42,691 nt of DNA. It comes from Candidatus Kerfeldbacteria bacterium. GTDB taxonomy: Bacteria > Patescibacteriota > Patescibacteriia > SBBC01. Where the stretch lies: contig JACQPY010000017.1 of NCBI GenBank assembly GCA_016207275.1, positions 68,479 through 111,169 of the forward strand. Direction: 5' to 3'. The position numbers were made by a program, and so were the translations under genes. The notes below the pieces were generated by a model. It was given only the letters and a program-made list of their open reading frames with translations, was not told the origin of the DNA and did not search any database. Below are positions 40,909-41,369 of the stretch, in pieces (position 1 is the stretch's first letter; the number at the start of each line of letters is the position of its first letter).

Positions 40909-40953
40909 ACGTTCCCCTGTAGTTTAAAAAGAAACCCCGCTTGTCCTTTCAGC

Positions 40954-41279
40954 TCCCCTGTAGTTCAACTGGTACCCCGCACCAGTGCTCGCCAATCTCG
41001 CACGGTACGGGGCAAGGAACGCTCGCTCTATCTGCTCCCCTGTAGTTTAATTGGTAAAACCCTGCACTGTTAATGCAGTGACTGTAGGTTCGAGTCCTAC
41101 CGGGGGAGCAGACAGCGTGTAGCTCCGCTGCTTGCCCCGTACACGACCTCGGTCCCCGACTTGATCTGGGAGATCCAGGGGAGTTGTGCGGGGTTAACGG
41201 AGAGGTTGGTGGTTCCCTGCCCGTCAAGTCTCGCCGGGTTCGTCCAGGAGAAGGCAGGCGGGGAGTCTACCCGGGGGAG
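40954..41279 (+). tRNA. Interrupted tRNA-Asn(GTT) with four insertions (functional status unknown)
   Basis: Joining 40954-40974, 41017-41020, 41122-41130, 41194-41215 and 41263-41279 gives a complete 73-nt cloverleaf with every stem paired. Confidence 0.8.
41036..41108 (+). tRNA. tRNA-Asn(GTT), intact, CCA not encoded
   Basis: Acceptor TCCCCTG/CGGGGGA, D stem GTTT/AAAC, anticodon arm CTGCA-CTGTTAA-TGCAG, T arm GTAGG-TTCGAGT-CCTAC. Confidence 0.97.
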
Positions 41280-41369
41280 CTGAGCGGACAAGGGCACTGC
41301 CTGCCCTGTACCGGAGCCCGCCATGCGGCGGGATAAACTCAGGCGCGCGAGCCGGGCGTCGTGAAGGAG

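Follow-up and report, generated by a model that had tools for sequence, protein, structure and literature searches.

The bacterial and archaeal systems closest to the arrangement described here are short palindromic repeats and the elements that target or interrupt tRNA genes. REPs are extragenic palindromes and carry no cargo. Rickettsia palindromic elements (RPEs) are selfish palindromes located within functional genes, which they do not destroy. Integrative elements that target tRNA genes are kilobases long, encode an integrase and duplicate the 3' part of the gene. In archaea, multi-intron, split and tri-split tRNA genes and the mobile introns of Thermoproteales are covered in PMC10714607, which cites Fujishima 2009 and 2010.

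The locus under study belongs to the window (the whole 42,691-nt stretch of DNA analysed, from Candidatus Kerfeldbacteria) and comprises three tRNA-Asn layers, forming a DNA-level 'Russian doll' in which older alleles enclose newer ones at one locus. The outermost is a stump. A complete second allele, bounded by an inverted repeat of 5+7 bp, interrupts the stump in its anticodon-stem 5' strand, and a third, the sole intact one and with its own inverted repeat, sits at the corresponding place in the second. A first-pass annotation had described three layers and placed the outermost at 40913-40940 with a D stem GTTT/AAAC; both points were confirmed by reading of the sequence and by the match of the stump to the inner tRNA. 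No description of nested or palindrome-pierced bacterial tRNA genes was found in the literature searched, supplements aside. The features of the nest are the following:

40913-40940, + strand: outermost shell, a tRNA-Asn 5' relic (24/28 against the inner tRNA; same start as the tRNA of the relative G001)
40940-40953, + strand: 5' arm of the inverted repeat around the middle gene (CTTGTCC, TT, TCAGC), paired with 41279-41292 in the MFE structure
40954-40974, + strand: middle gene acceptor 5' strand, D-stem 5' strand (GTTC) and D loop to GGTA, by sequence reading
40975-41016, - strand: REP-like palindrome (CCCCGCACC...GGTACGGGGCAAG) in the middle-gene D loop, by palindrome family match
41017-41029, + strand: middle gene D-stem 3' strand (GAAC), position 26 and diverged copy 1 of the anticodon-stem 5' strand (CTCGC TCT), conserved in G003
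41030-41035, + strand: 5' linker and arm (TCTGC) of the inner inverted repeat, paired with GCAGA
41036-41109, + strand: innermost intact tRNA-Asn(GTT), without encoded CCA (ARAGORN; Rfam RF00005, 69.7 bits, E 5.9e-15)
41108-41121, + strand: 3' arm of the inner unit (GCAGA, from the discriminator on) and linker
41122-41130, + strand: middle gene position 26, copy 2 of the anticodon-stem 5' strand (CTCCG), CT and G; CTCCG is complementary to 41198-41202
41131-41193, + strand: REP-like palindrome (CTTGCCCCGTACA...TGTGCGGGG) in the middle-gene anticodon loop, with a 93% identical copy on contig C11
41194-41215, + strand: rest of the middle-gene anticodon loop (TTAA), anticodon-stem 3' strand, variable loop, T-stem 5' strand and TTC
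41216-41262, + strand: 47-nt palindrome (CCTGCC...GGCAGG) in the middle-gene T loop, not in the C11 paralog or G003
41263-41279, + strand: rest of the middle-gene T loop, T-stem 3' strand, acceptor 3' strand and discriminator G
41279-41292, + strand: 3' arm of the inverted repeat around the middle gene (GCTGA, GC, GGACAAG); GGACAAG is retained in G003
41296-41299, + strand: ACTG, where the outer gene likely resumes, as judged from 41127-41130 and the tRNA-Asp locus
41300-41314, + strand: left-arm remnant of a further palindrome of the same family (CCTGCCCTGTACCGG), partly common to G003 and C11

The outermost shell is, by direct reading, a 28-nt version of the first 30 nt of tRNA-Asn. It contains the acceptor 5' strand, the D stem, a D loop lacking GG and 4 nt of the anticodon stem, and is cut after CCGC at 40940. 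Identity with the inner tRNA is uninterrupted over bases 1-15, and among 20000 28-mers drawn at random from the genome a single one scored as high as the whole stump. Nucleotides 1-14 of the inner tRNA are repeated upstream at 123 nt (no mismatches) and also at 82 nt (one mismatch), with no occurrence in the flanks of the other 27 tRNAs of the same genome, taken as control. In G001, which belongs to the same genus, a single intact tRNA-Asn was identified that begins exactly at the position where the stump starts. G001 and the window share the upstream genes and a terminator-like hairpin before the tRNA-Asn junction; their upstream flanks are 82% identical over 176 nt and the homology reaches nt 12 of the stump. 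As the stump starts where the tRNA-Asn of G001 does, after a homologous flank, it is what is left of the original resident gene, at its native 5' junction. The G001 tRNA at this outer position is a different allele, identical to the stump at 19 of 28 positions. A 22-mer formed by flank and stump had no match in the metagenome contigs searched.

Two other stretches upstream of the nest deserve description. The segment directly 5' of the stump (40866-40912), which G001 also has in conserved form, includes GTGCCCGAGCG and a stem CCCG/CGGG. These are reminiscent of the D arm in class II tRNAs (those of the Ser/Tyr/Leu type), and the segment could be a fourth, heterologous relic shell; the Rfam search of this segment gave no match. 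The second stretch (40736-40835) comprises a promoter-like ATGACA-18-AATAAT and, after it, a structured portion of about 70 nt with a strong terminator at its end (40803-40825 and a T run). Since G001 and G003 both retain this structured portion, a small RNA or a leader may be encoded 5' of the nest; the Rfam match to RcsR1 was weak (20.9 bits vs 60). Between this terminator and the inner tRNA no promoter-like site was found by the promoter scan.

The middle gene (40954-41279) holds four inserts: one palindrome in each of the D, anticodon and T loops, which the first-pass annotation did not separate, and the inner tRNA with its flanks. The latter splits the gene so that a copy of the anticodon-stem 5' strand stands on either side, CTCGC at 41022-41026 and CTCCG at 41123-41127. 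The palindromic inserts are confined to loops and interrupt none of the four stems, as would also be expected of inserts that are tolerated or spliced. When 40975-41016, 41022-41121, 41131-41193 and 41216-41262 were removed in silico, retaining the second anticodon-stem copy (CTCCG), the remaining 74 nt were called tRNA-Asn(GTT) by ARAGORN. As they stand, neither the middle nor the outer shell gave a contiguous cloverleaf by ARAGORN or RF00005, 41036-41109 alone being recognised. The D-loop palindrome is of the same family and in the same position as those found in relics of tRNA-Asp, Thr, Leu, Pro and Gln, and lies in inverse orientation to the anticodon-loop palindrome. At the anticodon-loop insert, inspected by eye, only 3 unpaired nt (5' side) and 4 unpaired nt (3' side) separate the anticodon stem from the palindrome helix. 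The CTTGTCC of the arm at 40940-40953 is similar to the CYTGCCCC head of the palindrome family. The 47-nt T-loop insert is the youngest event, since it is missing from the C11 copy and from G003.

Freed of its inserts, the middle gene matches the intact tRNA-Asn of G031, a genome of another family, at 65 of 74 positions, and its own inner gene at 59 of 73. The independent genome G003 was the only match in the search of genome contigs, and a 19-mer of the middle gene found 4 unrelated matches in the metagenome contigs, in coding DNA or in another tRNA. A stretch of 24 nt of the middle gene (41192-41215) is identical in G003, a conservation equal to or above that of the working inner tRNA, which is closest to the G003 inner gene (66/73). 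Judging from these sequences, such conservation would be odd if the middle gene were a dead relic. The middle gene of G003 has lost its D arm and the 5' strand of its anticodon stem is no longer complementary, losses by which the shells are seen to decay; the G003 nest is also without the outer stump and the 47-nt insert.

The innermost gene is the one tRNA detected by ARAGORN and Rfam in the window, and one of two intact tRNA-Asn(GTT) genes in the genome. Its flanks, TCTGC (41031-41035) and GCAGA (41108-41112), prolong its acceptor stem, as the arms at 40940-40953 and 41279-41292 prolong that of the middle gene. The first-pass annotation had read complementary flanks continuing both acceptor stems, and both helices are present in the minimum free energy structure of 40905-41330. 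This fold has -196.9 kcal/mol vs -167.3 +/- 6.7 for shuffled sequences (z = -4.43), with none of 100 shuffles as low. In a transcript, the flanks may also act as a processing helix. The annotation further saw each inserted unit as a hairpin with a whole tRNA at its tip that had entered a tRNA-Asn twice near the start of the anticodon arm. As DNA anatomy this holds, both in the inverted-repeat flanks and in the two positions, each in the anticodon-arm 5' strand of the older gene; the insertion events themselves belong to the mechanism proposed below.

On the 3' side, the middle unit is followed by GGC, ACTG, a palindrome left arm (41300-14) and unrelated AT-rich DNA. ACTG would supply the outer gene with the one base still missing from its anticodon-stem 5' strand, followed by the beginning of the loop. 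The sequence is indeed present at 41296-41299, where the annotation had read it, and by analogy it is likely the outer gene resuming, four bases alone being no proof. The likeness to tRNA stops 3' of the palindrome remnant at 41300-41314. G003 has the post-nest stretch of the window to about 41333 and is likewise without a 3' half. The outermost 3' half, which the annotation could not find, was indeed absent from the assembly both by BLAST of the locus against the genome and by a T-arm scan (46 hits). The only matches of the 3'-half search were C11:165432-165564, a copy of the middle 3' half, and C11:164409-164472, a degenerate Asn-like 3' end. Both were rejected as the outer 3' half, as neither pairs with the stump.

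Beyond the nest, an AT-rich stretch from about 41370 to 41590 separates it from a surface-protein gene. This stretch contains TTATCCACA (41370-41378) and CTATCCACA (41459-41467), both similar to the DnaA-box consensus. The gene corresponds to a large ORF (41593-42691) with repeated units of about 30 aa that runs off the contig end and had no match in the Pfam search. The window contig stops within this repetitive gene, 1.4 kb beyond the nest. The contigs of all four DNA runs jump between the ORF repeats, which are likely the reason why the contig stops.

A part of the nest was identified a second time in the genome, on contig C11. The copy comprises 41127-41215 and 41263-41306, with 93% and 89% identity respectively, and shows one difference in 41194-41215. 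It begins at the left arm of one palindrome and ends within the left arm of the next. About 950 nt 3' of it lies a degenerate version of the sequence that precedes the copied piece in the window, and the order on C11 is therefore circularly permuted with respect to the window; an order of this kind would fit cutting at the left end of the palindrome. The whole region (C11:164409-165570) comprises a partial Asn nest, with anticodon-loop palindrome, middle 3' half and flank, and after it a SAM-methyltransferase ORF broken by a frameshift. On the 3' side of that ORF is a degenerate Asn 3' end, together with the 3' flank of the inner unit.

The palindromes of the nest belong to a REP-like family with many copies in this genome. 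A count of hairpins with CCCCG arms gave 98, vs 22 in the reversed genome, and 21 of the 98 are found no further than 400 nt from a tRNA, in 2.6% of the genome sequence. The motif CCCCGYAC...GTRCGGGG is present in 16 copies and in none when read backwards; it was found in 58 of 151 sampled genomes of the class, where the backwards control gave 0 or 1 per genome. A REPIN-like inverted doublet at C15:35600-35720 recurs, inverted, at C13:37100-37210. Three ORFs match PF01797 (Y1); their best NCBIfam model is NF047646, REP-associated tyrosine transposase, with 75.7, 68.4 and 24.8 bits for a cut-off of 80. A palindrome lies just 3' of two of these three RAYT-like genes and none is clear upstream. 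One RAYT-like protein, encoded at C16:7367-7789, has 141 aa.

Other repeats and insertions were noted in the same genome. The RAYT-like ORF at C2:21851-22525 contains an in-frame hairpin of another family (TCCCGCC...GGCGGGA) between its two conserved halves. The match to RNase P RNA at C15:27952-28451 spans 500 nt vs 367 in the model (180 bits), and a family-like stretch at about C15:28343-28374, near its 3' end, raises the possibility that a palindrome sits inside an essential single-copy RNA gene. A third repeat family is represented at 40621-40698 of the window by a long inverted repeat with arms CCCCGTTAGAG and CTCTAACGGGG. It has about 12 copies in the genome, generally has TTGA or GTCA on its left and TCAA or TTGACA on its right, and encloses about 60-100 nt of AT-rich DNA; at 40621-40698 the right arm overlaps TTGACA.

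Nesting and flank pairing are not restricted to this locus. The genome (0.95 Mb, 21 contigs, 92% complete) contains 28 tRNAs. With rRNA models, no SSU rRNA was detected in its contigs, and the genome was assigned to Bacteria through its proteins, DnaK and DnaJ among them. To score flank pairing, we took the duplex energy of 22 nt on each side of a tRNA against all mismatched 5'/3' flank pairs. Scores below the 5th percentile of this null were obtained for 13 of the 28 tRNAs (Mann-Whitney p = 2e-4) and, in G005, a genome of the same family in four contigs, for 21 of 48 (p = 1e-5). The first-pass annotation had considered that such complementarity might be as frequent at ordinary tRNAs; against about 5% of mismatched pairs it is not, and it accompanies nesting. 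Complementary flanks belong to nested tRNAs across the family and not to the Asn locus in particular. Relic pieces of a tRNA of the same kind were found around the intact gene at all 17 loci of this genome read by eye, which had been selected for hits or flank pairing, the other 11 of the 28 being unread. In G005, 6 loci were read by eye and at least 5 had relic pieces.

The arms differ from one locus to another. In G031 the intact tRNA-Asn lies between palindrome arms within the anticodon loop of a relic. The tRNA-Thr(TGT) of the present genome has arms of the palindrome family, with a perfect arm of 16 bp, and in G005 tRNA-Pro(CGG) has a 19-bp palindrome arm and tRNA-Phe and Val are likewise enclosed by arms. 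The flanks of the inner Asn unit (TCTGC/GCAGA) are unlike the palindrome family, and since flanks also vary between loci, a sequence-specific transposase end is not evident. The 48 intact tRNAs of G005 include those for Phe, Tyr, His and Cys. In the present genome 13 of the 28 tRNAs lie less than 5 kb from a contig end, a zone that makes up 16% of the genome. From these two observations, the low tRNA count is better explained by assembly gaps, introns being unnecessary. The 'tmRNA' called by ARAGORN at C4:3203-3637 overlaps tRNA-Val(TAC) and is probably a false call from a nested or relic tRNA arrangement.

The explanation that we consider probable, with some reserve, is the serial overwriting of one tRNA-Asn gene by hairpin cassettes carrying a tRNA, which left dead shells behind. 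The mobile unit would be a single-stranded DNA hairpin whose arms are, or derive from, a REP-like palindrome and whose tip is a tRNA gene. The target would be a tRNA gene of matching identity, entered where its loops or stems are exposed, and insertion of the unit into an essential gene could be survived solely because the unit supplies a working replacement. The disabled shell would then decay, gain palindromes and shed pieces, the outer 3' half having gone here. The likeliest movers would be RAYT-like transposases, this being the least secure step; those of the genome itself may have moved the cassettes. No clean pair of empty and filled sites was found for either insertion among the genomes compared. 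The shells look like dead DNA relics and not like parts of a spliced RNA. As a whole, the first-pass interpretation is partly supported.

Four other origins were weighed against serial overwriting. That the nest is an assembly artefact, with repeats collapsed or chimerically joined, could be suspected from the repeats in common with C11 and from the contig end nearby in the repetitive surface-protein gene, but the chance is practically negligible. Contigs of four DNA runs, all from one study and one of them possibly the source of the assembly, span 40500-41306 or more without differences, and the independent genome G003 keeps the inner two layers in identical order; on these two grounds the nest is taken as real DNA. 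The same contigs contained no alternative allele of the nest, a skip of the 47 nt (joint 41215>41263) corresponding to the C11 paralog. It is very unlikely that the partial copies are integrase att scars, that is, attL/attR-type duplications left by elements targeting tRNA-Asn, as the first-pass annotation had considered for the 40913 fragment. Islands classically target tRNA-Asn, genes for a pilin and a type IV secretion coupling protein are found immediately upstream, and an island could lie beyond the contig end 1.4 kb downstream. The duplicated parts, however, consist of 5' ends and entire genes with spacings of just 41 and 82 nt, and not of 3' ends on either side of kilobases of DNA; the sole PF00589 tyrosine-recombinase match of the assembly is on another contig (C10:4-468), the upstream genes are syntenic in G001, and for the inner two layers this origin was already contradicted. 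Local duplication without a mobile cassette has more in its favour and is still unlikely. The tRNA would have been copied into itself through hairpin-primed template switching or slipped repair, provoked by palindromes and cloverleaf DNA, and gene conversion would then have made parts of the layers alike. This would agree with the 15 consecutive bases identical in stump and inner gene, with the similarity of middle and inner 3' ends within the same genome (this one and G003), with an amino-acid identity that is constant across layers and with the lack of a common transposase-type terminal sequence between loci. The 15-nt identity suggests, as far as the sequence goes, gene conversion more than simple decay, and together with the likeness of the 3' ends within each genome it points to conversion between layers. 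Against self-copying, the middle gene is a different allele, nearer to the tRNA of another family than to its own inner gene (65/74 vs 59/73), which favours successive alleles; part of the nest has moved to another contig, and the architecture recurs at most of the tRNA loci read in the two genomes, a pattern more easily ascribed to an active agent than to accidents.

A functional nested precursor, in which the shells are expressed and the inserts excised from RNA, with the pieces ligated or acting as split tRNAs, would be the bacterial equivalent of the multi-intron or split tRNAs of archaea and is very unlikely. It would account for the four inserts lying in loops or between duplicated stem strands, for the perfect tRNA-Asn obtained on their removal and for the part of the middle gene fully conserved in G003, and the prolonged acceptor helices could be processing stems. 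The genome, which is 92% complete, nevertheless gave no match to PF01974 (tRNA-splicing endonuclease) or PF01139 (RtcB). No Intron_gpI match was found up to E = 10 in 40600-41600, the match to group II D1-D4 had 15.9 bits vs a gathering score of 49, and the junction of the anticodon-loop insert is by eye a 3 x 4 internal loop, not a bulge-helix-bulge. The defects of the G003 middle gene in D arm and anticodon stem and the missing 3' half of the outer gene also oppose it, as do the two intact tRNA-Asn(GTT) genes of this genome and the full set of 48 intact tRNAs of G005. Removal of the inner unit alone, tried with 36 x 36 boundary pairs per tRNA, gave cross-junction cloverleaves at only 1 of 28 loci here and 8 of 48 in G005; of the latter, 4 were merely adjacent tRNAs and most of the others had abnormal anticodon loops. 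ARAGORN runs allowing introns of up to 1500 nt made 5 extra calls, rejected for poor structures across coding DNA. In its most specific form, with one precursor from which hairpins and inner tRNA are excised and the pieces of the middle tRNA-Asn rejoined or split-acting, the shells would be alive through protein-based or ribozyme splicing unrelated to EndA/RtcB at the D, anticodon and T loops, recognised by the acceptor helices, and the chance of this is very slim.

If serial overwriting by tRNA-carrying cassettes is true, tRNA genes in this family of the candidate phyla radiation are not stable housekeeping loci but are repeatedly overwritten by tiny cassettes. A 'break it and replace it' strategy of selfish DNA, so far known only for large integrase-bearing elements, would then extend to units of this size, and would offer a route for the horizontal exchange of tRNA alleles. 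It would also account for assembly breaks at tRNA loci and for tRNA counts that look low, and each locus would keep a datable fossil stack of tRNA alleles. The Asn locus is a concrete anchor, since the same-genus relative G001 has an un-nested gene at the same junction.

Among known systems, REP/REPIN-RAYT shares with the present one the many short imperfect palindromes, the inverted doublets in more than one copy and putative RAYT genes, two of the three with an adjoining palindrome. It differs in that the palindromes are here within tRNA loops and that hairpins of the same kind enclose whole tRNA genes; the RAYT match is here just under the curated cut-off. The arrangement shares with tRNA-integrating prophages and islands a tRNA gene as target, an insert that makes good the function lost through it and a displaced partial copy left in place. 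Unlike those elements, the insert measures here about 100-330 nt, supplies a complete tRNA, interrupts the anticodon-stem 5' strand and is not accompanied by an integrase in the vicinity. The multi-intron tRNA genes of archaea are similar in having inserts at several loops of one gene and related inserts across tRNAs. Archaeal tRNA introns need a bulge-helix-bulge, EndA and a ligase, whereas neither the motif nor the enzymes were found here. To our knowledge, no archaeal intron contains a whole tRNA gene. Finally, RPEs are tolerated in the product of the gene that harbours them, whereas the pierced tRNA shells of this locus appear dead, with function kept by the nested replacement gene.
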